A stretch of 52,496 nucleotides of DNA, taken from assembly GCA_048213135.1 (NCBI GenBank), contig PS015105.1:1-52496 (forward strand), written 5' to 3'. The position numbers and the translations under genes are program-made. Shown one piece after another: positions 2,390-52,496 of the stretch. The DNA comes from Reclinomonas americana ATCC 50394 (taxonomy: Eukaryota). The notes under the pieces were generated by a model. That model was given only the letters and a program-made list of their open reading frames with translations. It was not told where the DNA came from and ran no database searches. The stretch's first letter is position 1. Every line of letters begins with the position of its first letter.

Positions 2390-2660
2390 ATGCGTCGCGC
2401 AGTCGTTCATGTCGCTCACGAATCAGTGGTGCGTGATGTGACCAAGGTGGCGGCGAGTGCGCCCGGCCTCTTCGTGCTCTTTTGTGGCGACAAGGTCAAT
2501 GTCGGAGGTCAAGGTGTGTCAAAGAAGAGTGATTTATTGCTTGTCTCTCTTGTCTCTCATGTGTGAGTGGCGGTGGTGCAGAGCGCAGCTGGTGCCCCGA
2601 TTGTGTGAGAGCGGAGCCGCTGATTGAGGAGGCCTTTAGCTCGTTGAGTGGAATGAGGGA

Positions 2661-6803: not shown

Positions 6804-7205
6804 ATGGCTTCCTCGGCCTCTGGCGACAGAGTTACGCGCAATGCACACTCACATATCACGCAGCAGACAAAAGAAAAGCGCAAGAAAAAGCGCGTGAGAT
6901 GTCGCGAGATGTCGCACTCACTCTTTTTGCTCTCCTTGTGCACAGCCTGTTCATGTCTTTGACATGCAAGGATGGGTGACCAAGGAGGGTGGATCAGTGA
7001 AGAACTGGAAGAAACGGTGGTTTGTGCTGGATGCGGATAAACTGTGGTACTTCAAGAGTCCCGATGTTGCGTAAGAAAGAGAGAGAGAAGAAGAAGTAGG
7101 GGAAGTGAGTGTGAGAGAGTGAGAGTGTGTGAGAGATTGAGAGGAGATCATGTGTGTGAGAGTGAGCAAGAGAGTGAGAGAGAGGAAGAAGAAGCAGAAG
7201 CACAC

Positions 7206-7236
<31 letters not shown>

Positions 7237-9248
7237 GAGGGAGAGAGAGTGTGTGTGTGTGAGTGAGTGAGTGAGAGAGAGAGAGAGAGACACTCACACA
7301 CACACACACACTCTCTCTCACACACACAAGAGACAGAGTGTGTGTGTGTGTGAGTGAGTGAGAGAGAAGAAGGAGAGTCTGATGTGCTTTCTCTCTCACA
7401 CTCTCACACCCTTTCCCTGAACCCCCTTCTATAGGACGTTCACGGCGAGGCATACCCACGATCAAGAGGATGCATTCCGCTTGCCGACTGCTCCGTGGGC
7501 GAGGAGACGTACAAGAAGAAGAAGAACGCGTTCTACTTAGACACCAAGGAGCGCAAGTATCATTTCAGCTGTGAGACACCCGAGGATCGCGATGCGTGGA
7601 TGGAGGCGTTCCGGAAGGCGTCGGAGATTGCGGTTGAGTTGCCACTCTCCTCCTCATCGCTCTTCTTGTGCTCATTTGTTGTGCAGCCACAAGAGAATTT
7701 GGTCGATGCCAAGGTGGTGATTGTGGGTCCGAGTTTTGCTGGCAAGTCGTCGTTGCTTCGACGGTGCGTGGAAGGGAAAGGGAGGGAGAAGAGAGGGAGA
7801 GGAGGAGGAGGAGGAGAATGTGGGGAAAGAGGAGAGAGGGCTGATGTTTCATCGAACGGCGGAGTCTCTGTGTGTGGTCTCTCCGTTTCTTCCTCCTTCC
7901 GGCTTCTCCTTTGTGTTCGTTGTCTTCTTCTCTTTCTTCCTCGTGTCGCCCACTGCTGCTTGCTGTGTTGATCGTGTTTTCTTGTTTGGCTCAGCTGCTT
8001 GTTTGAGACCTGCCCTTCCGGCTTCTCCTCTGTGTACTTCTCTTTCTTCCTCGTCTCTCCCACTGCTCCTGATCGTCTAGTTTGGCTCTGCTGCTTGTTT
8101 GAGACCTGCCCTACCCTTTCTTGTTTCTTCCTCCTTCCGGCTTCTCCTCTGTGTTTCGATGTCTTCTTCCCGTTCTACCTCGTCTCGCCCACTGCTCCTT
8201 GTTCTGTGTTGAATTGATCGTGTTTTCTTGTTGGGCTCAGCTGCTTGTTAAAGACCTGCCCTACCCTTTCTTGTTTCTTCCTCCTTCCGGCTTCTCCTCT
8301 GTGTTTCGTTGTCTTCGTCTCTTTCTTCCTTGTCTCGCCCACTGCTCCTTGCTGTGTTTTGAATTGATCGTGTTTTTTTGTTGGGCGCTGCTGCTTGTTT
8401 AAGATCCGCTCTATCCTTTCTTGTTTCTTCCTCCTTCCGACTTCTCCTCTGTGTTTCGTTGTCTTCTTCTCTTTCATCGCCTCGCTCACTGCTCCTTGCT
8501 CCGTGTTGAATTGATCGTGTTTTCTTGTTGGGCTCTGCTGCTTGTTTAAGACCTGCCCTGTCCTTTCTTGTTCCTCCTTTCTTCCGGCTTCTCCTGAGTG
8601 TTTCGTTGTCTCCTATTCTCCTTCATCGCCTCGCCCACTGCCTGTGTGTCTGGTTGCATCTCATGTTCTGCATACCAGTCTCTTGGTTCCACCTCCGTTT
8701 CGTCTTCCTTGTCCCCTTTTCTTCTTGCAACTCACCAAGTTCTTTGGTTGTCATGACTGCATCATCTTTCATTCCTGCCTCTTCGTCCTGTTTGTGCGGA
8801 TCATCTCTTTCTTTTATCTCTCGCCTGCATGTTTCTCTGATTCTCTCTTTGCTATCGTCCTTTGCTTCTCCCTTCCCCTTCGCCTCCCTCCCCTCTCGCC
8901 TCATTCCTGTATCGCGCAGATGGACAACGGGCGACTACACCGAGTTGTACACGGAGAGCACAGAACCATCATCGTCACATCAGCTGTTCCCGCTGGAGGG
9001 CGGTCTGCACTGCATGATGGACATTTGGGTGAGGCCTGTGTAGCTGCCCTTCACTTGCCTCGCCCATCGCTCACCCTTCTGCTATCTCTCTCCAGGACGT
9101 TCCCGGCTCGCAGCCACCGGGTCCACTGCCACCAAACATCGCCAGTGGATCGCACGCCGTCGTGCTGCTGTTTGACCTCACCAATTTTGCATCGTTTGGC
9201 AAGGCCAAGAAGTGGCTGCGCGCACTGCGTTCGCAGTTCCGCGAGACG
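6804..9248 (+). CDS. PH domain fused to a C-terminal Rab/Ras-like small GTPase domain (3' end not resolved, probably in gap 9880-10813)
   Basis: Exons from 6804, 6946, 7435, 7687, ~8919 and ~9096 splice to PH (MQGWVTKEGGSVKNWKKRWFVL..LWYFK..GCIPL..CETPEDRDAWMEAF), then KVVIVGPSFAGKSSLLRR (G1), MDIWDVPG (G3) and HAVVLLFDLTNFASFGKAKKWL. Confidence 0.8.
7880..8640. repeat. Intronic degenerate minisatellite (~120-150 bp unit, ~6 copies)
   Basis: Core ttccg(g/a)cttctcct recurs near 7897, 8016, 8135, 8285, 8435 and 8582, with shared ctgcttgttt.agacctgccc and gcccactgctcc blocks. Confidence 0.85.
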
Positions 9249-11540
9249 GTGAGTGGGAGAAAGGGGAAGTGGATGAGTTGAAGGAGTCGTATTTGGTTTC
9301 TCGGATGGTGTCTAGGATGTTTCGTGGCGGCTTGCCACCAGGTGTTCCACTCTCTCTGTCTTTTGTGTGCGTGAGAGAGAGGCGGAGAGGGAGATGCAAA
9401 GGTAGCGATAGGCAGGCGAAAGTCGGTGTGATGGGAGACAGTCAGAGGGAGAAACGACACTGACAAGCAGACGCAGAGCAAAGTTGAATTGTGACGAGTT
9501 GCGGGAGACTGAGTACCTACGCTTCGCACGGACTCTCGCTGCGCGCTTCTTTCTGTCTCTGTCCTCTTTTCTTTTTCTCTCGCTGTCGATCACTCTCTGT
9601 CTCTCTCTCTCTCTCTCTTGCTTGCTCTTCCTCTCCTTCTCAGTGCCTCATTGTCTGTGTGACTCCTGTCTCGTGCCATTCTTTGTCACTCGCTCACGCG
9701 GACACACACTCTCGCTCTCTAACTCTCTCTGCCACTCAGTCTCTGATTTTCGCTTACTGTCGCACTGCTGCTCACCCTCACTGCCTCTCTGTCTGCGTCT
9801 CTGGGCTTGTGACTCCTCTCTGCCTTTCTCTCTGCCATTCTCTCTCTCTCTCTGTCTCTCTCTCTCTTACTCTCTCTCTNNNNNNNNNNNNNNNNNNNNN
9901 NNNNNNNNNNNNNNNNNNNNNNNNNNNNNNNNNNNNNNNNNNNNNNNNNNNNNNNNNNNNNNNNNNNNNNNNNNNNNNNNNNNNNNNNNNNNNNNNNNNN
10001 NNNNNNNNNNNNNNNNNNNNNNNNNNNNNNNNNNNNNNNNNNNNNNNNNNNNNNNNNNNNNNNNNNNNNNNNNNNNNNNNNNNNNNNNNNNNNNNNNNNN
10101 NNNNNNNNNNNNNNNNNNNNNNNNNNNNNNNNNNNNNNNNNNNNNNNNNNNNNNNNNNNNNNNNNNNNNNNNNNNNNNNNNNNNNNNNNNNNNNNNNNNN
10201 NNNNNNNNNNNNNNNNNNNNNNNNNNNNNNNNNNNNNNNNNNNNNNNNNNNNNNNNNNNNNNNNNNNNNNNNNNNNNNNNNNNNNNNNNNNNNNNNNNNN
10301 NNNNNNNNNNNNNNNNNNNNNNNNNNNNNNNNNNNNNNNNNNNNNNNNNNNNNNNNNNNNNNNNNNNNNNNNNNNNNNNNNNNNNNNNNNNNNNNNNNNN
10401 NNNNNNNNNNNNNNNNNNNNNNNNNNNNNNNNNNNNNNNNNNNNNNNNNNNNNNNNNNNNNNNNNNNNNNNNNNNNNNNNNNNNNNNNNNNNNNNNNNNN
10501 NNNNNNNNNNNNNNNNNNNNNNNNNNNNNNNNNNNNNNNNNNNNNNNNNNNNNNNNNNNNNNNNNNNNNNNNNNNNNNNNNNNNNNNNNNNNNNNNNNNN
10601 NNNNNNNNNNNNNNNNNNNNNNNNNNNNNNNNNNNNNNNNNNNNNNNNNNNNNNNNNNNNNNNNNNNNNNNNNNNNNNNNNNNNNNNNNNNNNNNNNNNN
10701 NNNNNNNNNNNNNNNNNNNNNNNNNNNNNNNNNNNNNNNNNNNNNNNNNNNNNNNNNNNNNNNNNNNNNNNNNNNNNNNNNNNNNNNNNNNNNNNNNNNN
10801 NNNNNNNNNNNNNNGATTCTCGCTGTCTATAAAGAGGATGGCAACACTGCACTCGCAGAAGAAGGAATCGTTGCTTTGTTTTCTTCCGCTGCTTGCACTC
10901 TGCTCTCACTCTTCCACCTCGGCCACACTCCCGTGATAATTCTTTATAAAATCAAGGTGAAAATTTCGCCAAATTTCGAGCATCCGGCTTGTCCAGGAAC
11001 GACAACTTCGTCTCAAAGGCAGTGCTCCTCCTTCTTCGGGGCCACATCATCCGACCGCTTTCCGCACCCTTCCGCCAATTTCCCACACATTCCTTTGTTC
11101 CACCGCCTTTCCCGGTCACTCCTCCTTCCTTCTCTCGTTTCCTACATTCCTCCTCGTTCATCCACACTCCTCCTCCTCTCACCTTGCACTCCTGTCCCCC
11201 ATACCCCCACCTTCTCTCGCTTCCCTCATTCCTCTTCCTTCAACCACTCCTCCTCTTCTCGTCTGTCACTTCTGTCCCCCATATTCCCTCCTTCTAGCTT
11301 CCCTTTCCCCATCCTTCCCCCCATACCCCTCCTCCTCTCCCCAACCTTCCCCAAACCCCTTTCCCCATCCTCTCCTTCCCCCCGCTGCCACTATTTCGAG
11401 TCCAACTTTACTGCCAATTCCCCCCCACCATGAAATCAAAAGAACCTCGCGCGCGTCTCGACTTTTTTCCCCGTTCCCCCGCTCCAGCTATTACCACGCA
11501 CGACAATTATTTGACCATGCTGCGGTGCGCAATGGGAGTG

Positions 11541-14500
11541 TCAGTGACCCACATTCAACAACAAGCACACGAAGAGCGTCGGTGCACGAAACTTGTAAAT
11601 GTACTGCGCGCCGAGCGAGAGAGAGAAAAGAGAGGAGTGAGTGTAAGCAGCAGCAGGAATGGTCGCGGCGTGGTGACAAGGAGACTCACCCCGGCAATCG
11701 CCAACACCAGCACAATGCAACAAATGTCGATGCACAGGCGTCCGGGGCCGCGAATCTGTGGAGACGGAAGACAGCGATGAGTGTGTCGAAGCGAGCAAGT
11801 CATGCCGCTCATCTCCCACTCGTCTCTTATCCCTCACACACATACACAAACACGATCTGTATCTCTCCAGCACTACATCTCTCTCCCCAAAGTGTTTCGA
11901 ATGCACAGTCCCTCCCATATCCCCCATCTATTCTGCACGCACGCCACCAACAGAATATCTCTTTTCGGCTGGCGCACAACGACCTCGCGTATAATTCCCT
12001 GAATGATCTGGATTCCTGTGCTCTCTCTCCCTGTTTTTCGTTTCTCTCTCCCTCTCCCTGTGTGTGTGTGTCCGTTCCTTTCATCGCACTCTCGGCGCTC
12101 TTGCGTACACTCTGGTTTATCACACTAATTTCCTCTCTCTCACTCTCTCTCACTCCCTGCCGCTTCACGCTCTCTTGATTTCTCTCTCTTTCCCTGTCGC
12201 TTCCTGCCTCTCTCTCGCTCTCACCTCTCTCGCTCTCTCTCTCTCTCCCTTCGCCTTCCCTCCCTCCTTTTCCCTACTTTCCCCACCCTTCCCCGTCACC
12301 CTCCCTCCCCCGCGCACCTTCGACAGCACATCCTTCATCTTTCTGTTGATCGACACCAACTGCGAGTTGACATTCTCTGTGTGTGACTCCACGCGATCCA
12401 GCAGCAGCGATTGACGATCGAGTTGCTGTGCAGCAGCATTGAGAAGGTGCAAAACGAGTGAAGAAGGTCGTTCGCACACCAACCTCTCCCAGTGCCCGTG
12501 ACTGCTCCTTCAGCGTCGTCACGCGTCTGCCAAACTCGTCGAGGCCGGAATTCTGCAAGCGCAAAACATCAGCAATCTCTCTTCTGCCCTCTCCCCCATC
12601 ACCACCACACGCAACGATGGCCTTGTCCTTGCGCGTACGAATGGCTTCGAACTCGGTGAGATCGATTTGCTCCAACTGCGACACCGTTGGATCGCCTGCA
12701 ATCAATCGACGCACGGGTTACCACAACGGAGGTAACTCCTTCCCCTCACAGCAGAACATCACGAAACGATCAAGAAACGCCGCGCCAACGTCGGAGAAGC
12801 CACGGCCTGCGCCGCCGCGTCGCATGGCCTCCTCTGCTCCCTCTGCCGACCCGGTGCTGGTGAGGGCGCGCTTGAAGTTCGCCACCTCCTCCACGTGCTT
12901 CGTCAGCAGCTGGATGTCGGCTTTCCTCATGCTCAACATGCGCTGTCCCTCGTCGTCGTTCTGCGAGGAGAGCGGTGAGGGGAAGGGTGAGGGGAGGGGT
13001 GAGGGGAGGGAAGGGTGAGGGGAAGGGTGAGGGGAAGGGTGAGGGAGAGGGGAAGGGAGAGAGAAAGAGAGAGTGAGAGAGAGAGAGAAAGGGGACTTTG
13101 AAAGAGACAGATAATACGGAACCGACTGATTCGCACACACACACACACGCAGGAAGGGAGACAGGTAGAGAGTGAGTGAGAAAGGAGAGACAGAGAAAAC
13201 GGAGCCGACTGCTTCAGACACGCACACACACAGAGAGATAAAAGAGAGAGAGAGAGAGACATGGGAGGGAGAGAGAAGAGAGTAAGAAGAGTGCACGGAA
13301 GAAAACAGACAGGTTCAAATAGTATAGAATGGCAAGAAAGATAGATAGACACACAGGCACACACGCACGCACACACAGGGAGGGAGACAGGGAGGGAGAG
13401 AGAGAGAGGAGAGACAGAGAATACGGATCCGACTGTTTCAGACACACACACACACGCACGCACAGAGAGAGAGAGAGAGAAGAGAGAAGAGAGACATGGG
13501 AGGGAGAGAAGAGAGCGAGGAGGAGTGCACGGAGAAAAAAACAGAGACAGGTTCAAACAGAAATAGAGAATGGCAACAACGAGATATAGACACACACAGG
13601 CACACGCGCACGCACACACAGGGAGAAAGACAGGGAGGGAGAGAGAGAGGAGAGAGACAAGAAGAGAGAGTGAAAAAGGGACTTTGAAACGGACAGAGAA
13701 TAAGTATCCGACTGATTCAGACACGCACACACACACACAGAGAGAGAGAGAGAGACAGACAGAGAACAGCAGGGCAGAGAAGAGGCGCAGAGACACTGCG
13801 TCTATGTCGTTCTCCCACTCTTTGTGCGTCAATGTCGTTCTCCCACTCTCCGTGCGTCGCTGCCGCTCTACCAGAGAGAGAGAGAGAGCAGACCTTCTTC
13901 AATTTCCTCTCCTGATTGTCCACCATGCGTTGCATCTCCGAGAGGAAGCGATTAATGTTCTCATCCTCTGCGCGGGGCGTGTGAGTCACGAGAATTCTAG
14001 AGATGGAGAGGTGCGAGACGCAACGTCTTGCAATCGCCTGATGCAACTCGAGCTTCTTGCCAGACCTATCGCCATTCCTTCGCAATTCCTGGCGCTCCTT
14101 GAGCAACTGTGCGAGATTAGAAGTGAGTACGAAGGGTGAGAAGGGGCGATATAAAGGCTCGCGCAGGAGCGCAAGGAGGGAACAAGAATGTAGGTGTAAG
14201 ATGGAATGTTGATTGCGCTCCTGGAAATGAGAGGCGCGTGGCAACACGAAAGAAGAGCAGACGGAAGTAGAGCAGCCGTAAGAAGAGAATACTGGAGGAA
14301 AGGAATGCAAGAAAGGCAACTCGGGCAAAATGAGAGAAAAGGCCACAGAGGAGAAGCGCGAGATCTGAGAGATCGGTGATTTTGAGAGACGGAAAAACAG
14401 CGTGCGGAGACAGGAGAAAAGAACGAGGAGAAGGGTACTCAACGCGAGAGAAGTGAACACTCGAGAGATGCATGCGAAGGGAGAGAAGAATCAAACAGGA

Positions 14501-15121
14501 AGCGCGGTCGAGAAAGCTCAGTTGGCGCAAGATCGCAGAACTCAAGAGCAGGGCCCACTCCTTCTCCCCTCCCCTTCTCTCCCCAGCAACCCACCCGTCG
14601 CTGATCCGCCAGCGCCTCCGCCAACCACAGCTTGCGCTGATCGAATGGGTCCAGCGTGGCCTCCGCCTCCTGTCGCTCTCGTTCCTCGTACGTCATCTCG
14701 TCGGCGATTGGGTCGTGGATGTCCTGGGAGGCGAGGAAAAGGAGAGGGAGAGTGAGGACAAGGGACGGTGCGTGCATCTCAACTGTGCCTCTCGCCTCTA
14801 CGATAACGATGACGAGTGGATCAGCGCAGAAGGATGTGAAGCTAAAGTGCGCAGAGAGAAAGCGTCATACACACATAGTACTGTGTGTTTGTGTGAGAGA
14901 GAGAGAGAAAGAGAGAGCATGATGCGAGGAACGTGAAGAATCGATAGGCTCAATGAATTCACCGCACGAGCAGCACCGGGTCAACACAAGGAGCGCGACT
15001 TCTCGCTCAAAGCGATCGCAAATGCCAGCGACCCTCACTGCACCACACTCTCTCCCTCACACAGACAAACCAAAGGCACATGAGCGCGAGCGATTGCACA
15101 ACTCGAGAGATGCGATCGCAT
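11541..15121 (-). CDS. Qc-SNARE of the SYP7 (SYP71-like) family, ~11 exons; start and last few codons uncertain
   Basis: SNARE motif NSGLDEFGRRVTTLKEQSRALGE/QLDRQSLLLDRVESHTENVNSQLVSINRKMKDVLSK, then IRGPGRLCIDICCIVLVLAIAG/YIYKF transmembrane tail (SYP7-like CIDI..GI..Y.Y). N-terminal exons RVAGICDRFERE and LDPFDQRK. Confidence 0.75.
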
Positions 15122-15941: not shown

Positions 15942-16003
<62 letters not shown>

Positions 16004-18259: not shown

Positions 18260-21200
18260 TTAACGCTGAATCTCGACCTTCCTGCGCGCCGTGCCAATGT
18301 CGCACGAGTTGACCTTGGCAGCAAAGCGCAACGACGACACACTCTCCAGCAGATGCAGCATGGCCGGCGAAATGTTGACAAACATGAGCGTCTTGGAGTT
18401 GCCGCCGAGCGACTTTTGCAGCAGGTAGGTGAGGCGCGAGTTACGGTACGGCACGTGGGTCGACTTGTTGGCCAGCGCGGCAATCACATCACCCAGGCAC
18501 GACAGCGACTTGTTAATGTGCTGCGTCTCCAGACGGCGATCGCCCGTGTGTTGCGTCTGCTTCAGGCGCTCCGAGCCGGCCAAATCGATGAGGTTCAGAA
18601 GGCCCTCCGACACGGCGCCGGTCTGCAAAGGGGGAAAAGAGGAAAAGGGAAAAGAGGAAAAGGGGAAAGAGGGAAAGGGTGAGTAAGGGGATAAATAAAA
18701 GGGAAAGGCGGAAGGGGGATAAAGGGGAAGGGGGAAGGGGAAGGGGGAAAGGGGAAGGGGGAAGGGCACAGGGGTGAAGAAGGACAAGAGGTGATAGAAA
18801 GGGAAGAGGAGAGAGAGAGAGAGAGGAGGCACATGGAAGGGAAAACGGCAGAGGGAGAAATGGCAGAGGTGAGAAAATGAGCAGAGACAGAATGCGTAGA
18901 GGCGAGCGACAAGGGCAGACGAGAGTGCAAGGGCAAATAAGAGACTGAAGCGCAGAGGAGAGTGACAAAACAGAGGTGCGAGAGGGCACAGAGAGAGAGA
19001 GAGAGAGAAAGCAGAGAAAAAGAGCACAGGTAGAGGAGTGGCCGACGTGAGATTAAGAGGATTGACACAGCAGTGGAGAGACAACTGGCAGCGGAGAGAC
19101 ATGGGTGCAGGCGAGGGGCAAAGCGAGAGAATCGGCAGATGCGAGAGAAAGGCAAAGGGGAAAACGAACAGGGAGAAAGAAAACGGCAGAGAGGACAGAC
19201 GGGAGACAAAGTATGGATGACAAAAGGGTGGAGTAGACGAGAAGAGAGGAAAGAGAAACGCAGAGCAGAGCAAGAAAGAAGCAAGCGCAATGGAGAAAAT
19301 AACTGAAGCGAGAAAGGGAACCGAAGAGCAAATACCAAACGGGAGGCGCGAGCAGCAGGCACAACAACTTAATGGATCACAATGCCACAAAGAAAGCACA
19401 AAAGACGAGTGACGACAGCCAACCACTCAAGGCCGAATGAGGACAGATACCTAAAGCAGTACTCATGAAATCAACACGCACCATTCTCTTCTCCTCTCAT
19501 CCCTCTCCTTCTCCCTCTCCACTATCTTCCTCCCCACACACCTGATGATTGTGTCCCTTGATGTACAGCTGGAACACAGAGTGCGAGCGCGACGAGTTGG
19601 CATTGAGCTTAGTCGCAGCCCACGAGCGCTGCCGACTGGCGCGGATGAGCAAGTCGTGCACCTCAGCCGGATCACGCACGGGCACTGTAGTGGATGAGGA
19701 AGAGGAAATTGAGTGGACTGAACAGCTCAGCAGGGCAAGCGAAGAGCAGCACGCAACAGAGTTCGAGATTGGAGACCGACACACTGCCGTCGCCATTCTG
19801 CTTGATGTCGTACTTGAGGTTGGTGCCGGGTTCGGCGAGCAGATCGCGAATCTGCTCGTTGTAGATTTCCAAAAAGCTGCGCAGAGAGGGAGGCGAGTGA
19901 GAAAAGGGGCAGAGATAAGGACAGAAAGTGTTCTCTCGCCATCTCACTTTCACCGCAGCTCCCTCTCATCGCTCGCTTCTCTCTCTCTCTCTCTCTCTCT
20001 CTTTCTCATCGCTCGCTTCTCGCTCTCTCGCCCTCCCCCTCTCTCTCTCCCCTTTCCTTTCCCTCTCCCCTTCACACTCTGCGCTCACCTGGCCTCCAGC
20101 GTGTACTCCCACCCCTGATCCCGCAGGCTCTCGGCCACCGTGAAAATCTTCTCCACCGTGCGCGGAATCACACCACCCTGCTCGGACAGGTTGTAGCGCA
20201 CGTGACCAGTGCCCGAGGCCTCCTCCCACACCGGACCCTCCATGGTGAAGGTCTTGCCGGAGCCCGTGACACCATAGCTGTTGTTGTGTAAGTCACTCGC
20301 CAAGAGAAAACAAAAAAAGAGGCAAGAGCAACACAGGAGTAACGCAACGCGAAAATGCACACGTGATAGCCGTCGAGTGCGCTCTGCACCAGCTGCGACA
20401 CCTCCTCAAAGACCTCTGCCTGCGTCGATGCCGGCGGGAAGATGCGATCAAACGAGAACTGGTGTGCCGAACCCTGTCCGTTCGACAGGATAATCGTGTT
20501 CTCCAGGTCCTCCGGGTACTCAATGTCGGCCGCCTCGCCGTCGTCGCCCAACATCGGGCGCACACGGCAGAACACACGAATGTTGCCCTTGAGCTCCTGA
20601 ATCTCATTGTGCAGCTTGCGGCGCAGCATTTCGTCGTTGCGGCGACGCTGCTCCAGCTCGTTGATCTCCTCAATGTGCGCGGCGAGACGGTTCTGCAGCT
20701 TGGCAATGGTGCGCTCGCGCTCCGCCACGCGTGTCTCCGCGGCCTCCAGGGATTTCTTGGCCTCGGCCACCTAATACAGGGGAAGGGAAAAGGGGGAAAG
20801 GGGAAAGGGAAAGGGGGAAGGGGGAAGGAGGGCGAGTGAGTGGCGAAGTCACACACGGAGANNNNNNNNNNNNNNNNNNNNNNNNNNNNNNNNNNNNNNN
20901 NNNNNNNNNNNNNNNNNNNNNNNNNNNNNNNNNNNNNNNNNNNNNNNNNNNNNNNNNNNNNNNNNNNNNNNNNNNNNNNNNNNNNNNNNNNNNNNNNNNN
21001 NNNNNNNNNNNNNNNNNNNNNNNNNNNNNNNNNNNNNNNNNNNNNNNNNNNNNNNNNNNNNNNNNNNNNNNNNNNNNNNNNNNNNNNNNNNNNNNNNNNN
21101 NNNNNNNNNNNNNNNNNNNNNNNNNNNNNNNNNNNNNNNNNNNNNNNNNNNNNNNNNNNNNNNNNNNNNNNNNNNNNNNNNNNNNNNNNNNNNNNNNNNN

Positions 21201-24200
21201 NNNNNNNNNNNNNNNNNNNNNNNNNNNNNNNNNNNNNNNNNNNNNNNNNNNNNNNNNNNNNNNNNNNNNNNNNNNNNNNNNNNNNNNNNNNNNNNNNNNN
21301 NNNNNNNNNNNNNNNNNNNNNNNNNNNNNNNNNNNNNNNNNNNNNNNNNNNNNNNNNNNNNNNNNNNNNNNNNNNNNNNNNNNNNNNNNNNNNNNNNNNN
21401 NNNNNNNNNNNNNNNNNNNNNNNNNNNNNNNNNNNCCCCCCACAGATGGACGAGGACTACTCATCCCACGAGGAAGAGATCACGCGCCTCCGCGGAGGCC
21501 GCGGCAGCAGCAATGGCCCCTCCTCCGACGGCGACTCCGCCGCGCAACAGCGGCGCCACCTGGAGCAGGAGTTTGAGGCGGCCAAGGCCCGCGAGGGCCG
21601 TCTGCTCGGCGAGCGCAACTCGCTCAACGAGAACCTCACGCGCCTGCACGCCGAGATGCAGCACGTGCAGGATGAGATCAACATGCTGCGCGACTCGTAC
21701 CGTGCCAAGGACGAGGATCTGCTGAAGGCGCAGGAGGAGATGCGTCGTCTGCAGGCCGCCGCCGAGCAGGAGATTGGCAGTGTGCGCGCCAAGTTTGCCA
21801 GGGATATGGAGGCGCTGCGGCAGTCGTATCATGAGCAGTTGGCACCGGCGCAGCAGGCGCTGGAGGAGTCGATTCGCGGCAAGGATGTCGAGTTGAGGGC
21901 GGCGCAGGATGAGGTGCGCAGGATCCGTTCCAAGGCCGAGGCCGACATGGAGGCGCTGAAGAAGCAGCATGAGGCCACGATTATGAGCTTCCATGCGGGT
22001 CTGCGTGCGCAGGTTTGTNNNNNNNNNNNNNNNNNNNNNNNNNNNNNNNNNNNNNNNNNNNNNNNNNNNNNNNNNNNNNNNNNNNNNNNNNNNNNNNNNN
22101 NNNNNNNNNNNNNNNNNNNNNNNNNNNNNNNNNNNNNNNNNNNNNNNNNNNNNNNNNNNNNNNNNNNNNNNNNNNNNNNNNNNNNNNNNNNNNNNNNNNN
22201 NNNNNNNNNNNNNNNNNNNNNNNNNNNNNNNNNNNNNNNNNNNNNNNNNNNNNNNNNNNNNNNNNNNNNNNNNNNNNNNNNNNNNNNNNNNNNNNNNNNN
22301 NNNNNNNNNNNNNNNNNNNNNNNNNNNNNNNNNNNNNNNNNNNNNNNNNNNNNNNNNNNNNNNNNNNNNNNNNNNNNNNNNNNNNNNNNNNNNNNNNNNN
22401 NNNNNNNNNNNNNNNNNNNNNNNNNNNNNNNNNNNNNNNNNNNNNNNNNNNNNNNNNNNNNNNNNNNNNNNNNNNNNNNNNNNNNNNNNNNNNNNNNNNN
22501 NNNNNNNNNNNNNNNNNNNNNNNNNNNNNNNNNNNNNNNNNNNNNNNNNNNNNNNNNNNNNNNNNNNNNNNNNNNNNNNNNNNNNNNNNNNNNNNNNNNN
22601 NNNNNNNNNNNNNNNNNNNNNNNNNNNNNNNNNNNNNNNNNNNNNNNNNNNNNNNNNNNNNNNNNNNNNNNNNNNNNNNNNNNNNNNNNNNNNNNNNNNN
22701 NNNNNNNNNNNNNNNNNNNNNNNNNNNNNNNNNNNNNNNNNNNNNNNNNNNNNNNNNNNNNNNNNNNNNNNNNNNNNNNNNNNNNNNNNNNNNNNNNNNN
22801 NNNNNNNNNNNNNNNNNNNNNNNNNNAGGGGGAAAGGGTGAGCAACAGGGAAAGGAGGGGGTTTGAAGGGAAAGGGAAAGAGGGAGGGAGAGGGATTGAC
22901 GGGAAAGGAGAGGGAGAAAAAAGTGACAGTGTGTATGAATGGTAATCACATTCCCTCTCCTGTTCTCTCTGAGTGAGTGAGCGAGTGAGAACGAGAGAGG
23001 AGAGAGAGAGAGAGAGAGTAAATGTGTGCCAGCGTGCCAGCGTGCGGAGAGGAAGTAGTCTCCAATTGCAGTCTTCTCTCTCATCCTCATTCTTTGTGTG
23101 CATGTGCGAGAGATGGAGAAGGAGAAGCAGCACACAGACCTGCAAGTTCTTCAGTCTCTCTCACACTGTGTGTGTGGGTGAGAGGTCTCTTGTCTCACGT
23201 TCTTTTCACTGTCTTCTCTCTCTTCCTCCCTCTTTCATGTTCCTTGTGTGCCTATGCGCAAGTGCGTGTGTGCAAGAGCGCGTTGAGAGAGAGAAAAAGA
23301 AGCAAAGAGACCTGTCTCTGAATGTATACGAATGAGCAAGAGGTCTACCTCTCTCTATGTGCACAAGCGTGTGTGTCAGTGGAGTGAGAGGTCACTTTTC
23401 TCACGTTTCTCTGTCGTGTGAATGAGTGAGATCTCTCTCCCTTCTGCTCCTTCTCCTACTCTCACTCTCTGACTGTGCAAGAGCGTGTTGAGAGAGAGAG
23501 AGAGAGTGAGAATAAAGCACAGAGACCTGTCTCAAGTTCTCTCTGACTGTGCACGAGTGAGCGAGAGGTCTATCTCTCTCAGTATGTGTGTCAGTGAGGT
23601 CTCTTTTCTCACGTTTCTCTGTCTGCTCCTCTCTCTCTCTGAGTGGTCGTGTGAATGAGTGAGAGGCCTTCCCCCTTCTGTTCTCCCTCTCTGACTGTGC
23701 AAGAGCGTGTTGAGAGAGAGAGAATAAAGCACAGAGACCTGTCTCAAGTTCTCTGACTGTGCACGAGTGAGCGAGAGGTCTATCTCTCTCAGTGCGCAAG
23801 TGTGTGTGTCAGTGGAGTGAGAGGTCTCTTTTCTCACGTTTCTCTGAGTGTGCGTGTGAATGAGTGAGTGGTCTTACTCTCTTTCTCTCTGTGTGTGTGT
23901 GTGCGTGCGCAAGTCTCTTTCTCACGTTTCTCTGTCGCCTCCTCGCTCTCTGAGGGTGCATGTGAATGAGCAAGCGGCCTTACTCTCTCCCCCTTCTGTT
24001 CTCCCTCTCTGACTGTGCACGAGTGTGTTGAGAGAAGAGAGAGAGAGTGGAGTGAGACCGTTATGGCACGCGCACACACACACGAGTGTCAACTGTGTGT
24101 GTGCGTCATAGTGCCTGTGTAACGCAACACTCTCAATGGCGGCAACACTCGAGGCTGATGAGGTGGCGGCGGTGGCAGAGGCAGACGAGGGGCGCGCGGG

Positions 24201-26002: not shown

Positions 26003-29000
26003 ATGTTGCTGCTGCGACTTCCTCGCCGCCTCGCGGTTCCCCCAGTGCCCACGCACCTCAGAATATCACCACAATCTCCTCCTCACTCTCATTCCTCTCA
26101 CAAACAGCAGCAACAACAGAGACGACTGGTCTCCTCTGCGTCCTCCTCGGCCTCAGTCGCGCAACTGCGCGTCGGAGTGCTCTCCATGCAGAGCAAGTTC
26201 ACCATGCCGCCGGCGCCTAGTGTAAAGGTAAGGGAGAGAGAAGGAGACATGTGTAGAGATCAAGGAGAAATGAGTGGAGAGAGGGAGTGTGAGACNNNNN
26301 NNNNNNNNNNNNNNNTCTCTCCCTCATTCGTGAGAGCTTGCAGTTGTCTCTATTCTTCTCTCAGAGTCACTGAGTGCCTCTTCGGAGAGTGGGGTTGGAT
26401 GCTGTTGTCTCTTAGCCTCTCTCACTTGCTCACTGAGAACGAGCGAGAACGGAGAGCTGCGTACAGCTCGTCGTCTTCGTATTCATTGTCTCTCTCCTTG
26501 TTTCGCTCTCTCATAGTCACTGTGTGCCTCTTCGGAGAGTGGCTTTGCATGCTGTTGACTCATAGCCGGTCAGTCGCTCTCTTACTTGCTCACTGAGAAC
26601 GAATGAGAGCGGAGAGCGTCAAACAGAGAGTTGTCTTGTCGTCTCCATGTATTCATCGTCTCTCTTCTTCTCTCAGAGTCACTCTGTGTCTCTTCGGAGA
26701 GTGGGTTTGGATGCTGTTGCCTCTCAGTCGTTCAGTTCTCTCGCTTGTTCACTGAGAACGACAGAGAGTTGTCTCGTCATCTCCATATGTTCATAGTCTC
26801 TCTCCTTCTCTCAGAGGCACTCTGTGTCTCTTCGGAGAGTGGGTTTGGATGCAGTTTCCGCCTGCTCTAGTCGTTCAGTGACTCTCACTTGTTCACTTGG
26901 AACGACAGAGAGTTGGCTCGTCGTCTCCATTGATTCATTGTTTCTCTTCTTCTCTCAGGGGCACTGTGTGTCTCTTCGGAGAGTGGGTTTGGGTGTTGTT
27001 GTTTCTTGTCTTCAGTGTCTCTCTCACTTGCTCACTGAACGGAGAGCGTCATACAACGAGTTGTCTCCTCATCTCTATATTTTCATAGTCTCTCCTCTTC
27101 TCTCAGAGTCACTGTGTGTCCTTCGGAGAGTGGGTTTAGATGCCTTCTCCACCGCACTCGATACGTCGTGAGTGATTGCATGTTCTTCTTGTCGTCTCAC
27201 GTCTCCCTCGGTCCCTCGCGCTCATTGAGGAGAACGATCGAGAAGCCGAGTCGTCCGCTGCTCAGAACGAGAGAGAATGAGAATGAGGAATGAGAAATAG
27301 AGTTGTCTTGTTGTCTCTCTTGTTTGCTCGTCTCTGTTTCCTCTCGCTCATTGGGAGCGTCAGACAAAAGGCACTTGTTTGTTCCGTTCGCTGTGAACGA
27401 GATTGCCGGAGTTGCCTCCTCGTCTCAGTTTCCTATTCTTGAGTCTCTCGCGCGGGAGAAGCAACAGGCCAAGTGCATGCTTGTAGCTCTCTCTCTCTCT
27501 CTCTCACTCTCTCTCAACCTCTCTCCCCTTGTCTCACCCCCAGGTATTCACCAACGTCGACACCCTTGTCGAGTTCACCACCACGCTGGAAGACTGCGGC
27601 GCGTGGTTGTACACCTCGGCGCGTGTGGAGCACACGTACACGTCGGTGAATCGGGCGCCGGATCATCAGAAGCTGACGGTGACTGTCGACTGGCCGCAGG
27701 CGAGGGCGAGCTGGTTTGATCGATTGTTTGGCAGGCTGGTGAGGGGGGAGGAGGGAATGGAAGAGAAGCGTGTGAGCCCTGTACGTGGATGTGTTTGCCC
27801 GTTATGCTGTTGATCTCCTGTTCCGTGTATTGCGTGTCTTTCCTCTCACTCTCTCTCTTTGCGTTTTCTCTCTTTCTCTCATTCGTCCTTTATGTGTGCG
27901 CTGGCTGCCTTTCCTCCCACTGTCTCGCTGTTCGTCTCTTTCTCCCCCTCGTTCCCGTTTCTCTCTCTCGCTCTCATTCATTCTTGATGAGACAATCGGG
28001 CGCCTGTCCTCCCAAGTCATTCTTTGCGTCTCTTTCCCTCTCATTCCCGTTTCTCTCTCTCTCTCTCTCATTCTTCGGTTTGTGTTCATTGCGTGTCGTT
28101 CCTCATCTGTCTCCATGCATCTCACCTCCCATTTCGTTCTCTTTCTTTTTCGTTCTCCTTCCTCCCTGTCGTTCTCCCTCCCTGTCGTTCTCCTACCTCC
28201 CTGTCGTTCTCCTTCCCCATCTCGTTATCGTACCTTCCTACCTCCCTATCTTTCTCTCTCTCTCTCTCTCTTGTTCTCTCTCTCCTTCGTTCTCCTACAT
28301 CCCTCTCGTTCTCCGACCTCCCTCTCGTTCTCCCTCTCGTTCTCCCTCTCTCTTGTTCTCCTACCTCCCTCTCTCCCCTCTCCCCCCTCTCTCTCTATGT
28401 GTTCGCCTTCATTCGCGCTTTCTCTCTTCTTAATCTCTCATCACAGTTCGGCCAAACCTACCCCTCCGCATCGCTGTGCCTGCGCATCCCCGAGAGCGCC
28501 GATCTCGACGTGCACTCCTCCAACGGCGATCTGTTTCTCACGGGCGCCTTTCGTGGTGGTCCGTCTCTCCGCCAGTCTCCTCTTGCCGATGCTGCCTCCT
28601 CACCCTTGCGTGTCGCAGGCAATCTCAATATAAGAGCGCACGACGGCAGTGTCAACTGCGATCAACTGTGCGGTGTGTCGCACAATGCCAATGTCGAGGA
28701 GGGCGTCTTGTCGATTGGCCTGCTCGACGGCGCGCAGAATCAGGTTTGTCAGCATGAAATGCATACTCGGCGAGGCAGCTGGCAGAGAGAGAATGAGAAA
28801 GAGAGACGATGGGACGGAGAGAGAGAGGCAGAGAGAGAGGGACAGGGGGGAGAAGGATGCAGGGATTCAGGGAGACAGGGAGAATGAGAGACGAAGGGAG
28901 GGAAAGTGGGAGAAAGGAAGAGAGGGAGAGAGAGAGACAGAATAGGCAGGAAAAGGAAAGAGAAACCTGATGACTAGAGACAGCGAGGGTCGCGCGGACA

Positions 29001-30198
29001 GAAGCAAATGCACGCGCACGAGATGAGAACCAACATTGGAAGCCACGTGCTCTCACGAGAAAATGCACTCCAACAGTGATACTCACAGCACAGAGAAGAG
29101 GTAAATTGGAGAGAGTGAGAGAGAAATCGTGAGGGACAAGAACTAGAATTGCTTGTTGCAGAAGGAGTTGCTTTCGTTGTTGTCATCTCACATCTCCCTG
29201 CTCGATAGCTTTCGAGTGACGAGCGCAACATCGAGATTGGTCGCATCGAGGGCGGCAACACCATTCTGCGCTCCGACGAAGGCAGCATCTTCTTCGAGCT
29301 CACGGAGAACGGCAACGTCGATGCCAAGACCGAGGAGGGGCATGTGGAGGTGCGTGCGGGGGAGGAGAGGGGTGTTTGTAAAAGGGCATTTTTGACGTCT
29401 CCTTTCCCCACCCTCACGTGCATCACTCCCACTGTCACCTCAAACCTTCCCGGGTTGCTGTTGCCGTTTCTTGTTTTTACCCTCCTGCGTTCTCTTTCTT
29501 TCCCTTGTCACCAGAGGTGAAGGTAGATCGTGGCGATCTCATTGTACAAGCGTGTCGTCGAAGAGTGCGTTCTCAGGCGCCTTGACCACCTGTGAGCACG
29601 CGAAAATCACTGAGTCTCTTCTTCTGTCTCCTTCAATGTGTTTTCTGGCTTTCCTCTTCTTACATGTGCTTTGAAAATAACTGTTGACAGACAAGAGCAT
29701 GTAGTGTAGCAGTGTATTCATTACTCGCTTGCATGACTATTGCACTTGCACCCTCTGACCCTTGTTCGCACCGTTGCACTGCGACATGCTTGCAGGCGTT
29801 TAGCTCTCGCTCTTTGTTTCGCAGTGTTGCGCATTCATGGCAAGCAACGTGGCACGCAGAGCGTGGCCGATTCTACAGTGCTTGCAGTCCGACGAGCTTG
29901 CAAGCACCTCTCTCTCTCTCTCTCTATTTGTCGCAGTACATTCTTTGCTGAGCACTCGGAGAGTATGGCAGGCTTCGCATGAAAATTGATGCACCTCGAC
30001 GTCTCTAGTGCTTCCTATCTCTCTATGCNNNNNNNNNNNNNNNNNNNNNNNNNNNNNNNNNNNNNNNNNNNNNNNNNNNNNNNNNNNNNNNNNNNNNNNN
30101 NNNNNNNNNNNNNNNNNNNNNNNNNNNNNNNNNNNNNNNNNNNNCCCTAGAATGCAAGCCCAACATAGAAACGAATAGATGTGTGTGTGTTTGTGTGT

Positions 30199-30240: not shown

Positions 30241-30959
30241 GAGAGAGGTACTTGCGAGGTACTTGCACGCTCGACGAACGCAAAGGTTTAACAATGTATA
30301 TGCAGTGGAGTGAGACTGCGTCGTGCTATGCTCGTCGAGAGCACTCCAACGGATGCGCTACANNNNNNNNNNNNNNNNNNNNCACCTTGAACTTTTTTCT
30401 TTTTCGATTTATTTGCAGAAGTCTGTCTTCGCTTCCTGTCAGTTTGTCTCTCTTTTTCTCTGTAGCGCATCCGTTGCAGGACCCTCGACGAGCATAGCAC
30501 GACAGACTCTGCAGTCTCGCTCCACTGCACGCACATTGTTAATGCTTTGCTTTCATCGAGCTCATTCCCCTCCTCCCTTCTTCCCCCCCTCCAAGGCCAA
30601 CCTCGTCAACAACCGCTTCGGCACAATCCGCCTCGAGTCCGTCGAGCGCGACGTCCTCCTGCTCACCAACCCCCTCTGCCGCGCCAATCTGCACGTGCTG
30701 GGCCCGCTGAGCACCCTCAAGTATCCAAGAAAACGCATCTCGTTTGATGACGATTGTTGCGTTCCGTGCTTCCATGTGCCGTGCATTTCTTCCCCACTCC
30801 TCTAACGATTCTCCGCCCGCAGTGCACACTGAGGGCGAGGCAGCAGAGGCGCACAGCCACAAGAAGCCGCACCTGGGTCGCATGAATGGCGGCGACGCGA
30901 GTGGCAAGCGTGAAATCACGCTGAAAGCCCGCACCATGATTATTCGCATGGGCGGCTGA
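26003..30959 (+). CDS. DUF4097/FAM185A-like beta-strand-repeat protein with a putative mitochondrial presequence, ~7 exons
   Basis: Exons from 26003, 27544, 28447, 28619, 29209, 30596 and 30823 splice in frame. Repeats LRIPESADLDVHSSNGDL, LNIRAHDGSV, ILRSDEGSI, VDAKTEEGHV; C-terminal GRMNGG..EITLKA. First exon is Arg/Ser/Leu-rich with no acidic residues. Confidence 0.65.
26360..27150. repeat. Intronic degenerate minisatellite (~140-160 bp unit, ~6 copies)
   Basis: cttcggagagtgg recurs near 26380, 26530, 26693, 26830, 26974 and 27121, with shared ctcactgagaac and ctctcagagtcact blocks. Confidence 0.85.
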
Positions 30960-31093: not shown

Positions 31094-34000
31094 TCATGTG
31101 TACCGACTCAGATCTGCGCTGCGCATGGCGTCCATGGAAGTGCGGTTGACATTAGAGGGCTGGAACGGATGCAACGTGGCGTCCTTCTTCAAAAACTCCC
31201 AGGCCAACTCGTAGAACGCAGAGGCGATGGCATCCTGTTGGGGGGAGGAAGAAGTGATGAGAAGGGAGGAGGAGAGGGGGAGGGAGAGGGCAAGGGGAAG
31301 GGAAAGAGGGAAAGAGGGGAGAGGGGGAGGGGAGGGAGAGGGAGAGGGAGAGGGAGAGGGNNNNNNNNNNNNNNNNNNNNNNNNNNNNNNNNNNNNNNNN
31401 NNNNNNNNNNNNNNNNNNNNNNNNNNNNNNNNNNNNNNNNNNNNNNNNNNNNNNNNNNNNNNNNNNNNNNNNNNNNNNNNNNNNNNNNNNNNNNNNNNNN
31501 NNNNNNNNNNNNNNNNNNNNNNNNNNNNNNNNNNNNNNNNNNNNNNNNNNNNNNNNNNNNNNNNNNNNNNNNNNNNNNNNNNNNNNNNNNNNNNCAACTG
31601 CAAGGGAGGAGAGAAAACACTCGAATTATCTCTCCTCCTTCATCTGCTGTCTTTGTCGCCACATTTCCCGTTCATCAACCGACAATAATGCATGGACGAG
31701 CGCTCACTCGCGAGCGAGAGGCCTCAATGAGACAACATAATCTCAACAAACTCTTTCTTCCGTTCTCCACAAACAACGAAGAGCGAAAGCACACACTCGC
31801 TCATTTCGAGAAAGAAGATTCACACAGACAACAGTGATCTCGTCAGGTGTCTCAATTCCCTCTTTCCCCGGCCCACAACAGAGGAATGTAAGAGCACACC
31901 CACTCGCAATGTGAAGATGCAAGAACAACTCAAGCAGCTCTTTTCTCTCTCTTTTCTTCTCACGAACAATCAATAATGACTCACTCGCTCGTACAACAAA
32001 CTCACACAACTCAACCAACTGTCCCGAGTTCGACCCTCCATGCTATCAACCCAAACAAGCTCTCACTCACAAACCTGACCAACTCTCTTTCCCTTTCTCC
32101 CTTCCCCTTGCAACCCCCTTCCCTTCACCGCACCTCCATTCCCGTCTGCACCCCCGCCGACACCCCCGTCGCCCTCTGCGCATCGTCGAGTCTCCGTTGC
32201 CAGTTATCCCGCTCCGCCGCATACTCGCGCTCTCGCCTCTCCATCGCGCTCTCGGTCTGCGCCATCAGCTCGTTGAACCGCCGATCGGCCGCCTCGCAGT
32301 GGCTGTTGGCCAACTGCACGGCGCCCTCGAGCTGGCCCACCGTTTTCCGCAGCTTGTTGATCTGCGCGTCCTTTTCCGCCAGCTGCTGCTCCATGGCCGT
32401 GGCCGCCTCCGCCAAGCGGCGCTCCATCTCCGCCGTCGCAAGCGCCACTTGCTGTCGCGCCTCCTCCAGCACTTGCGGGCTTGGGGCACTGGCGGCAGTG
32501 GGGGACGGTGTTGCGGCTGCGGCTGCTGTTGCTGCTGCCGTGGCGGCGGCCGCGGTGGCCGTCTTCAGACGCTGCTCCAGATCGGCCTGTGAGGAAAAGA
32601 GAGGAAGAGTGTGAGTTATTGACACAGAAGCTCAGTGTCTGTGACGACAAACCTGCGTGGCGGCGGCATTGGTCAGTGCGGCGCGGAACTGCTGCTCCAA
32701 CTCGCTCTTCTCCTTTTGCACGCGGTCCAGTCGCATCTTGGTCTCCTTCAGCTCGAATGACGCGTCGCGGCTCTCCATCTGGTCGGCCAGTCCGCTGCCC
32801 GCGTCGTCGCCCACCGAGGCGTGGCTCATGCGCGAGCGCTCGTCCTCCAGGCGCGACACTTCGACTTCCAGCCGGCGGACCTTGGCGTCGAGGCTCTCCC
32901 TGAATGGAGGGGAAAGGGAGGGAGGGAAAGGGAAAGGGGAGGGGGAAAGGGAAGGGGAGGTGAGGGGGAAGGGCAGGGGAGAAACATACATGAGAGGGAG
33001 CGAATTGAACTATGACGCAAGCACGAAATAGGGATGGAGAGAGAGAGTAACACGCGCGAAGGAAATGAGAGGAATGTGAAGACGATGGGAAAGAGGAAGT
33101 GGCAATGGCCCTCCCTGTGAATGGAGACAGAAACNNNNNNNNNNNNNNNNNNNNNNNNNNNNNNNNNNNNNNNNNNNNNNNNNNNNNNNNNNNNNNNNNN
33201 NNNNNNNNNNNNNNNNNNNNNNNNNNNNNNNNNNNNNNNNNNNNNNNNNNNNNNNNNNNNNNNNNNNNNNNNNNNNNNNNNNNNNNNNNNNNNNNNNNNN
33301 NNNNNNNNNNNNNNNNNNNNNNNNNNNNNNNNNNNNNNNNNNNNNNNNNNNNNNNNNNNNNNNNNNNNNNNNNNNNNNNNNNNNNNNNNNNNNNNNNNNN
33401 NNNNNNNNNNNNNNNNNNNNNNNNNNNNNNNNNNNNNNNNNNNNNNNNNNNNNNNNNNNNNNNNNNNNNNNNNNNNNNNNNNNNNNNNNNNNNNNNNNNN
33501 NNNNNNNNNNNNNNNNNNNNNNNNNNNNNNNNNNNNNNNNNNNNNNNNNNNNNNNNNNNNNNNNNNNNNNNNNNNNNNNNNNNNNNNNNNNNNNNNNNNN
33601 NNNNNNNNNNNNNNNNNNNNNNNNNNNNNNNNNNNNNNNNNNNNNNNNNNNNNNNNNNNNNNNNNNNNNNNNNNNNNNNNNNNNNNNNNNNNNNNNNNNN
33701 NNNNNNNNNNNNNNNNNNNNNNNNNNNNNNNNNNNNNNNNNNNNNNNNNNNNNNNNNNNNNNNNNNNNNNNNNNNNNNNNNNNNNNNNNNNNNNNNNNNN
33801 NNNNNNNNNNNNNNNNNNNNNNNNNNNNNNNNGCGTCTCCGCCAACTCAGTCTGCAGGGCCGATGAACCCGAGCCCGCAGCGTCTGGTGACGCCGGGGTC
33901 GCCGTGGTCATCTTGTCGAGCGTCTGTGCCAGGCGGCGCGTCAAATCGTCGCGGTCTTGTTGCAGGGATTCCTGTCGACCAAATAAAGTCAGTTCTACAA

Positions 34001-34785: not shown

Positions 34786-34829
<44 letters not shown>

Positions 34830-37594: not shown

Positions 37595-37654
<60 letters not shown>

Positions 37655-47400: not shown

Positions 47401-50747
<3,347 letters not shown>

Positions 50748-52465: not shown

Positions 52466-52496
52466 GTGTGTTTTGCGGGAAATGGGAAGGGTGGGG

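Follow-up and report, generated by a model that had tools for sequence, protein, structure and literature searches.

The genes on a draft scaffold of Reclinomonas americana ATCC 50394 (contig PS015105.1, positions 1 to 52,496, a stretch of 52,496 bases that we call the window) use two kinds of 5' splice site, or donor, and the kind that is used goes together with the last base of the upstream exon (position -1). Normal donors (class N) have a G at intron position +5. Shifted donors (class S) read GTTNNG without a G at +5, and donors that fit neither description form class O (other). Among 47 donors curated by hand, an exonic G precedes 30 of the 31 normal donors (the exception is TAT/GTGCGT at 34032, where the slash marks the cut, as it does throughout) and both donors of class O. 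It precedes one of the 14 shifted donors, GCG/GTTGAGT at 7633. This difference (1/14 versus 32/33) has a Fisher p of 1.4e-9, and we consider it very probable that, at the DNA level, both classes exist and are linked to exon -1. The initial annotation of this DNA had tallied 17 of 18 shifted donors after A, C or T and 45 of about 46 normal donors after G, and had proposed a contingency test over introns confirmed by RNA sequencing. Our recount, made over hand-curated donors instead, finds the same association with the same two exceptions; the lower tally is explained by the copies and candidates that we left out. It also bears out that both classes share one 7-mer, here in the form G-(G/T)-T-N-N-G-T, which is cut either after or before its first G. 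The wording that the register is "set by" the last exonic base is causal and goes beyond these data.

The intron flagged at the outset, K1, lies in the motor of a kinesin-14 gene (20278..20348, minus strand, 71 nucleotides (nt), phase 2). On the sense strand it reads TTC GC/GTTGCGTT...CAACAG/C TAT GGT, the last two exon bases being 20349-20350, and the codon that it splits is Ala in 49 of 60 homologues. The spliced model of five kinesin exons is 1,230 nt long (410 amino acids), has no stop and aligns to the 60 homologues without gaps around each junction. The Pfam Kinesin profile is continuous over the four introns of the model (profile positions 79/81 at K1, then 127/130, 167/171 and 215/223). 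Because of this gap-free alignment and the continuity of the profile, we conclude from the sequence comparison that K1 is a GT-AG intron with a GTTGCGT donor after an exonic C, real at the DNA level, as it had been read before.

The other three kinesin introns, also on the minus strand, are K2 (19877..20088) with the normal donor CAG/GTGAGC, K3 (19685..19757) with the shifted donor CTCT/GTTGCGTG and K4 (18623..19541) with the normal donor CAG/GTGTGT, which is placed by the homologue alignment. In the ISY1 gene on the plus strand, alignment with 80 homologues places the shifted donor GAT/GTTGAGTG (40743..40888), the normal donor ACG/GTTTGT (40920..40986) and the class O donor ACG/GTACTA (41100..41162), which has no G at +5 or +6 and follows an exonic G. 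The spliced kinesin and ISY1 models align to their homologues over every junction, and the best protein relatives of these exons are only ~40-58% identical. Profile positions are continuous over the four kinesin introns, and also over an intron in a PH domain (7066..7434) and one in a TLDc domain (44234-44300, TLD profile 51/54). In these nine homology-checked junctions all four shifted donors follow a base other than G, and all five donors of class N or O follow G.

Each gene was read by hand on its sense strand, and the exon -1 base was not used as a criterion in picking introns. A script check found GT at 47/47 donors and AG at 43/43 visible acceptors; with the frames restored relative to homologues, this is the picture of U2-type GT-AG introns. 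A second, near-identical copy of a gene labelled 'Hook' (36372-38995) was left out. So were four introns with several in-phase donors (1349/1355; 27739/27772/27781; 29350/29354; 50135/50156), in each of which one donor option follows G and the others follow a base other than G, and a set of weak candidates, partly in untranslated regions (UTRs) or terminal (4656, 30538 or 30514, 24128, 24495, 25117, 39704, 49122, 50598 and 50748). Free enumeration of GT-AG pairs made clear that the reading frame alone does not fix donors. Close to the donor, one or more further in-phase GTs are present in 29 of the 43 introns. Gene finding by program (codon-score segments and four Viterbi variants) returned antisense purine-rich 'introns' or over-predicted, and recovered 4-5 of 7 hand-read introns; it served for pointers only and no count rests on it.

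The association is robust to the choice of donors. The Fisher p is 4.2e-8 without the TRAF/TLDc paralogue m, 1.6e-6 without both TRAF/TLDc genes and 1.1e-6 when the four ambiguous and two weak donors are all counted against the rule. As an alternative donor we counted any further in-phase GT from 30 nt upstream up to the first in-frame stop, provided that the remaining intron would have 45 nt or more. For the 14 of 43 complete introns that have no such alternative, exon -1 is G at 1/6 shifted and 7/8 other donors (p = 0.026).

It is the normal class that carries the signal. Within the 10.4 kb of curated exons, 25.8% of GT dinucleotides have a G before them, and window-wide 13.9% of GTT trinucleotides do. 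Against these two backgrounds the depletion of G before shifted donors (1/14) is not significant (p = 0.09 and 0.40), whereas G before the other donors (32/33) is far above background (p < 1e-17). The association thus stems from the normal class: its donors require an exonic G, whereas for donors of the GTT type it is dispensable. Decoys within the same exons show the same requirement. In these 10.4 kb the word GTNNGT is present but unused 30 times, in 26 cases with a base other than G before it, and some are perfect GTGCGT or GTGAGT words within homology-supported exons. Real donors with GTNNGT follow G in 18 cases and another base in one (p = 1e-8 against the decoys), so the G at -1 separates real normal donors from look-alikes.

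A reading of the codons shows that nine of the 14 shifted donors follow a residue whose codons leave no room for a G at -1. The base in question belongs to an Asp codon at 7066 and 40743, to an Ile codon at 12615, and is the second base of an Ala codon at 20348; at 19757, 30756, 14024, 12767 and 1129 it opens a Leu, Gln or Arg codon. The proposal that the intron supplies the G when the exon cannot fits these nine codons; the U1 partner C9 that was proposed for this G is not used in any of the best shifted duplexes with canonical U1 described below.

The two classes also differ in how tightly they are defined. The shifted donors read GTTGCGT in nine cases and GTTGAGT in two, and T at +3 is present in all 14. 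Counted over 13 donors without paralogue m, the shifted class has T at +3 in 13, G at +4 in 11, C at +5 in nine, G at +6 in 13 and T at +7 in 12. The normal class (n = 24) is loose, with G (14), T (8) or C (2) but never A at +3 and any base at +4. A purine at +3 is common in most eukaryotes, and T at +3 without A in the normal donors is unusual by comparison. No curated donor after a base other than G has the form GT(A/C/G)NNGT. Intron lengths and acceptors are alike in both classes: CAG ends 13 of 14 shifted introns (one has TAG) and 28 of the 29 others, which makes 41 CAG and two TAG among all 43 acceptors. An informal comparison by eye for an introner-like origin found no shared sequence among the shifted introns beyond the donor.

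On its two strands the window contains the word GTTGCGT 15 times, in no case with a G in front. Nine of these words are curated donors, five stand in plausible donor contexts (24128, after a likely first coding exon; 24495, ahead of it; 39704; 50748; 25117) and one is antisense inside a kinesin exon. Sense-strand exonic GTTGCGT decoys are absent from the 10.4 kb of curated exons. Around some of the plausible donors the gene models may be extended. On the minus strand, an open exon led by ATG runs from 24222 down to 24129 and ends AGT/GTTGCGT (24128), which is probably an unannotated gene start; a possible 5'-UTR intron ahead of it starts GTTGCGT at 24495 and ends CACAG at ~24222. The gene that we call N may continue past its TGA at ~50606, as GAG/GTGGGT at 50598 with an acceptor at ~50654 would open a coding-like exon, and this putative exon ends GCA/GTTGCGT (50748). 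The word at 25117 lies ~80 bases downstream of a transfer RNA (tRNA) gene (24965-25036, plus strand; Rfam 62.8 bits), the sole match in the window at gathering score.

Shifted and bulged registers of 5' splice site pairing are reported as established for human U1 in Tan et al. 2016 (PMC4856993), and our best reading of the two donor classes is a register shift of this kind, a +1 frame of U1, to which we would give about an even chance of being correct. We infer that the heptamer G-(G/T)-T-N-N-G-T may be the unit that is read by the U1 small nuclear ribonucleoprotein. Its first G would pair with C9 of U1, its T with A7 and its final G-T with C4 and A3. The cut would fall just 5' of the first GT inside the heptamer and would be set later by U6 and the catalytic core. 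In the shifted class the U1 helix would then be displaced downstream by one base with respect to the cut, and this +1 shifted register would be used wherever the protein sequence forbids an exonic G.

Several observations weigh against this reading, some of them from duplexes computed with the canonical U1 5' end (sequence taken from Tan et al. 2016, PMC4856993), from which the host's own U1 may differ. Shifted donors bind this end with a mean of only -1.3 kcal/mol (n = 14), compared with -8.2 kcal/mol for normal donors (n = 30), all of which pair in the usual frame. The pair between the +1 G and C9 occurs in 0/14 of the best shifted duplexes. The normal exception at 34032, GTGCGT after a base other than G, reaches -2.2 kcal/mol, better than GTTGCGT after such a base (+0.5 to -1.6), and despite this better pairing it is used once against 13 uses of the shifted form. 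For this reason the stability of the canonical duplex does not explain the rule. The C that shifted donors favour at +5 does not match canonical U1. Their +4 and +5 (G 11/13, C 9/13) are much tighter than +3 and +4, the positions aligned with them in the normal class (G 14/24, C 4/24), and a single reader in two registers need not produce such a difference. A is found at exon -1 of the shifted class in 2/13 and at the aligned -2 of the normal class in 13/24 (p = 0.035); the pairing of the normal class to U10 does not slide along, and a plain one-base slide of the whole helix would predict otherwise. Finally, the 47 donors all come from a single 52-kb window, two paralogous genes account for 16 of them, and the 38 junctions other than the nine checked by homology rest on an open frame, a coding look, a CAG or TAG acceptor and the motif on the intron side.

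The best canonical duplexes of the shifted donors are divided among several frames. In eight of the 14 shifted donors the best canonical duplex lacks the +1 G, and seven of these eight pair +6 with C4 and +7 with A3, as in the shifted frame; these duplexes are of 2-6 base pairs and -3.8 to +0.5 kcal/mol. Five shifted donors pair the +1 G with C4, and one is bulged. Since canonical U1 holds GTTGCGT very weakly, a diverged U1 5' end (for example with GC for the two pseudouridines at positions 5-6), a second U1 or a protein helper would be likely from the modelled energies. A hypothetical U1 with GC at positions 5-6 is predicted to bind normal donors at -9.1 and shifted donors at -6.1 kcal/mol. 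In the shifted donors it would pair the +1 G, leave the U at +2 unpaired and pair +3 to +8, which is exactly the shifted frame. A hypothetical end with A at position 8 would reverse the preference, with -9.6 kcal/mol for shifted and -5.5 for normal donors. These hypothetical ends are model predictions, not findings. The combined proposal, in which an obligatory G paired to C9 goes with a re-tuned U1 (either a single U1 with bases other than those of ACUUACC at positions 5-6, or two isoforms that differ at position 8) and about a third of the introns are read one base off the cut, is more speculative still, and we would sooner expect it to fail than to hold.

The rule could in principle reflect how the introns were delimited. 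On the alternative put forward in the initial annotation, the spliceosome would cut after the G, so that the shifted introns begin TT and end one base past AG. The products would be identical at 4/14 shifted introns, where the next exon starts with G, and synonymous at K1 (GCC versus GCG). At ISY1 40743..40888 the Ile codon (ATT) would become Val (GTT), and as the homologues have Ile in 48 and Val in 27 of 80, this column does not discriminate. The junction codon of K3 does: it is TTG (Leu) under GT-AG cleavage and TGG (Trp) under TT-start cleavage, and the column over 60 homologues holds 38 Val, 12 Leu and 3 Ile, which makes 53, and no Trp. The shifted introns moreover end in CAG or TAG as the others do, and a TT start would need a separate 3' rule. 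We know of no spliceosome that cuts after G in this way. Judged by the homologue column at K3 and the shared endings, TT-start cleavage is very unlikely, to the point of being negligible. By the same column, K3 is cleaved as a GT-AG intron with the cut kept at GU, and for the 13 other shifted introns GT-AG cleavage rests on parsimony. An artefact of intron picking by both readers, or chance in a small sample, would agree with the other in-phase GT near 29/43 introns, with the four introns set aside for offering both G- and non-G-preceded options and with the failure of automatic gene finders to recover donors reliably. We consider it very improbable, as the nine homology-fixed junctions all obey the rule, which holds in the introns without alternatives and with the ambiguous cases counted against it, and the decoy contrast within homology-supported exons is independent of motif-based picking.

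Other explanations accept the two classes and assign them to a different reader. In a bulged register, U1 would keep its usual frame (+1 G with C8, +2 U with A7) with one U looped out and +4 to +7 paired to positions 6 to 3. Bulge +2/+3 registers are described as established in human cells in Tan et al. 2016 (PMC4856993), and the donor at 7633, shifted after an exonic G, is predicted to form a bulged duplex with canonical U1 at -5.6 kcal/mol. A bulged base, however, could be any base, and here it is T at +3 in 14/14, with no GT(A/C/G)NNGT donor after a base other than G; canonical pairing at -1 would favour an exonic G for the C9 pair as in the normal class, and G is present in only 1/14. The bulged duplexes with canonical U1 are also as weak as the shifted ones. 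A shift thus appears to fit the sequences better than a bulge, because the extra base, T in every case, would pair with A7, and because the exonic G, which would gain the C9 pair if the duplex were bulged, is missing; we regard the bulge as unlikely. A second U1-like small nuclear RNA (snRNA) whose 5' end is the exact complement of GUUGCGU (A for C at position 8, GC at 5-6) could serve the GTT class while standard U1 serves the rest. The sharpness of the shifted class (9/14 GTTGCGT) beside a normal class that is loose at +3/+4 would suit it, as would the preference predicted above for an end with A at position 8, and variant U1 genes are reported to exist in humans. But the Rfam scan finds no snRNA gene in the window, so that nothing there supports a second U1, and such an RNA would still face exon -1 with U10, where no preference for A or G is seen; this explanation is rather improbable too. 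Recognition might also be due to proteins (U1C, Prp8 or an SR-like factor) or to U5/U6, with the shared heptamer a coincidence. Canonical U1 pairing indeed fails to explain the choice of GTTGCGT over GTGCGT after a base other than G, and the favoured +5 C is its mismatch. Yet the two signals match base for base (G, T, G, T) at the positions that contact U1, and an exonic G required at the catalytic step (U5 loop 1, Prp8) would disable the 13 shifted donors that lack it. We consider that explanation unlikely as well.

If the +1 shifted register of U1 is the correct reading, its closest known likeness is in human cells. Tan et al. 2016 (PMC4856993) describe the +1 shifted register of atypical human 5' splice sites, with Roca and Krainer 2009 as its source, and it would share with the donors here the intron that starts with GU, the U1-complementary block one base downstream, the cut that is uncoupled from it and the dispensable exonic G. 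The human register is rare and relies on long complementarity at +4 to +9, with -6.5 kcal/mol for the test oligonucleotide (Tan et al. 2016, Table 2, PMC4856993), whereas here it would concern 14/47 donors with a fixed T at +3, GCGT at +4 to +7 and poor canonical pairing (~-1 kcal/mol). Unlike in humans, the shifted form is here the near-exclusive solution for exons that do not end in G. The human sites reportedly number a few dozen. The bulge +2/+3 registers (Roca et al. 2012, cited in Tan et al. 2016, PMC4856993) resemble our shifted class in the GUU start and the downstream block displaced by one base, but they keep the pairing of the exonic G and leave the extra base free, whereas our donors lack the exonic G and have T as the extra base throughout.

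Two other comparisons concern the donor words. The normal class shares its loose GT-N-N-G-T core and short introns (~60-75 nt) with Cryptococcus and other basidiomycete yeasts, whose 5' splice site consensus is GTNNGT. We know of no report of an obligatory exonic G or of a GTTGCGT class in those fungi. U12-type introns likewise present a second, sharp donor word beside a loose major class; their donor is (A/G)TATCCTT and their branch site TCCTTAAC lies close to the 3' end. U12-type identity of the shifted introns was rejected: 0/14 shifted donors carry the U12 donor word, and their acceptors and lengths match the major class.

The remaining curated introns lie in other genes. The PH-GTPase gene on the plus strand, labelled by a Pfam PH domain followed by a weak Ras-like match, has the shifted donors GAT/GTTGCGTA (7066..7434), where exon 1 covers PH profile positions 3-36 and exon 2, starting at its residue 9, covers 43-104, and GCG/GTTGAGTT (7633..7686), the GTTGAGT donor that is the sole shifted one after an exonic G. 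This 54-nt intron is in frame and free of stops, and its retention would add 18 residues between the PH and GTPase parts. Further along the same strand are normal donors ACG/GTGCGT (7764..8919), TGG/GTGAGG (9029..9095) and ACG/GTGAGT (9249..9255, acceptor unseen). A coiled-coil gene on the minus strand has normal donors CGG/GTGGGT (14107..14594), AAG/GTCTGC (12961..13893), GAG/GTTGGT (12426..12483) and AAG/GTGCGC (12311..12317, acceptor unseen), and shifted donors GAC/GTTGCGTC (13968..14024), ATC/GTTTCGTG (12696..12767) and ATC/GTTGCGTG (12553..12615). Its label 'SNARE-like' is unconfirmed, with no Pfam match for the exons tested.

On the plus strand, a low-complexity gene contributes the shifted donor ATC/GTTGCGTG (1129..1202). 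A gene with a TXD17-like thioredoxin label from Pfam has a normal donor AAG/GTGTGT (2514..2581), after which the next exon matches profile positions 35-55, and a shifted donor AGA/GTTGTGTC (3367..3443). Also on this strand are the shifted donors ATT/GTTGCGTT (30756..30822) and, in gene N, CTC/GTTGCGTA (49397..49942), and the normal donors GTG/GTCCGT (28559..28618) and CAG/GTTTGT (28744..29208, acceptor TAG). The donor CAG/GTGTGT of a gene with a Pfam cNMP-binding domain (PKA-R-like; 52466..52472) has its acceptor beyond the window, and CAG/GTTTGT (22013..22018) is cut by an assembly gap and of low grade. The 'Hook' gene on the minus strand has AAG/GTTGGT (34517..35434), TAT/GTGCGT (33972..34032), the sole normal donor after a base other than G, for which there is no other in-phase GT leaving an intron of at least 45 nt, and the normal donor CAG/GTTTGT (32587..32652). 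Its label is unconfirmed, as Pfam gave no Hook match for the three exons tested. The exons and introns of this gene are present in two near-identical copies (33834-36351 and 36372-38995), from a recent tandem or an assembly duplication.

Two tandem paralogues on the plus strand (42300-44685 and 44950-47340) combine RING/TRAF-like zinc fingers with a Pfam-backed TLDc domain and have identical intron positions; the 3' end of a third copy lies at 41700-41980. Their codon usage looks less rich in G and C at third codon positions (GC3-rich) than that of their neighbours, and their donors are mostly GTGAGT. Copy 1 has the shifted-like donor AAA/GTTATGCG (42881..42958) at the position that corresponds to AAA/GTTGCGTG in copy 2 (45539..45604), for which TTG/GTGAGT 15 nt downstream is an in-phase alternative. 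In both paralogues this GTT-type donor lies upstream of a 30-nt exon (42959-42988 and 45605-45634) that encodes the last Cys-x2-Cys pair of the RING-like finger. Seven more introns in copy 1 all follow an exonic G (42496-42655, 42712-42771, 42989-43054, 43308-43382, 43517-43589 with GTGATT of class O, 43821-43892 and 44234-44300), and the seven in copy 2 are all normal after G (45152-45313, 45370-45429, 45635-45698, 45952-46013, 46148-46223, 46455-46517 and 46856-46921).

The window as a whole contains 21 runs of N with 6,532 N in total, and simple repeats are numerous. Exons are GC3-rich, and the introns between them are short and mostly pyrimidine-rich. The kinesin with a C-terminal motor carries its label from the Pfam Kinesin and Microtub_bd profiles, and ISY1 from homologues that carry the ISY1 domain (Pfam: PF06246). 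Pfam also supports an AAA ATPase, whose frame 15811-17566 (plus strand, ...LLLVDELD) reaches a gap at 17567-17731 and seems to resume on the minus strand at 17732-18224 (LYMVDAEAGE..., stop at ~17985), so that this 493-base piece looks inverted in the scaffold. Tandem repeats lie at 8076-8641 (150-nt unit, inside the intron 7764..8919), 26623-27143 (144 nt, upstream of the gene at 27.5-29.5 kb) and 34805-35147 (118 nt, inside the 'Hook' intron 34517-35434). The Rfam scan of the window gave no U1, U6 or U5, and at E ≤ 1 only low-complexity hairpin matches besides the one tRNA.

In open-access text we found no genome reported to have a GTTGCGT-type class that accounts for ~30% of its donors and stands in for the exonic G, and no splicing paper on GTTGCGT, GUUGCGU, GUUGAGU or GTTGAGT. 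On shifted base-pairing or register, our searches of that text found only work on human, yeast, worm and tunicate. If the shifted register is true genome-wide, the frame of U1 and the cleavage site would be uncoupled at thousands of introns in a natural system, and gene finders trained on conventional donor models would put about one donor in three in the wrong place here. The 5' end of U1 is among the most conserved RNA segments known, with ACUUACC near-universal, and the reading would predict a changed or duplicated U1 5' end in this organism. It would also allow a clean test of whether U1, U6 or the first GU determines the cut, and the shifted register would rank as a main mode of defining splice sites, no longer a curiosity of human cells.

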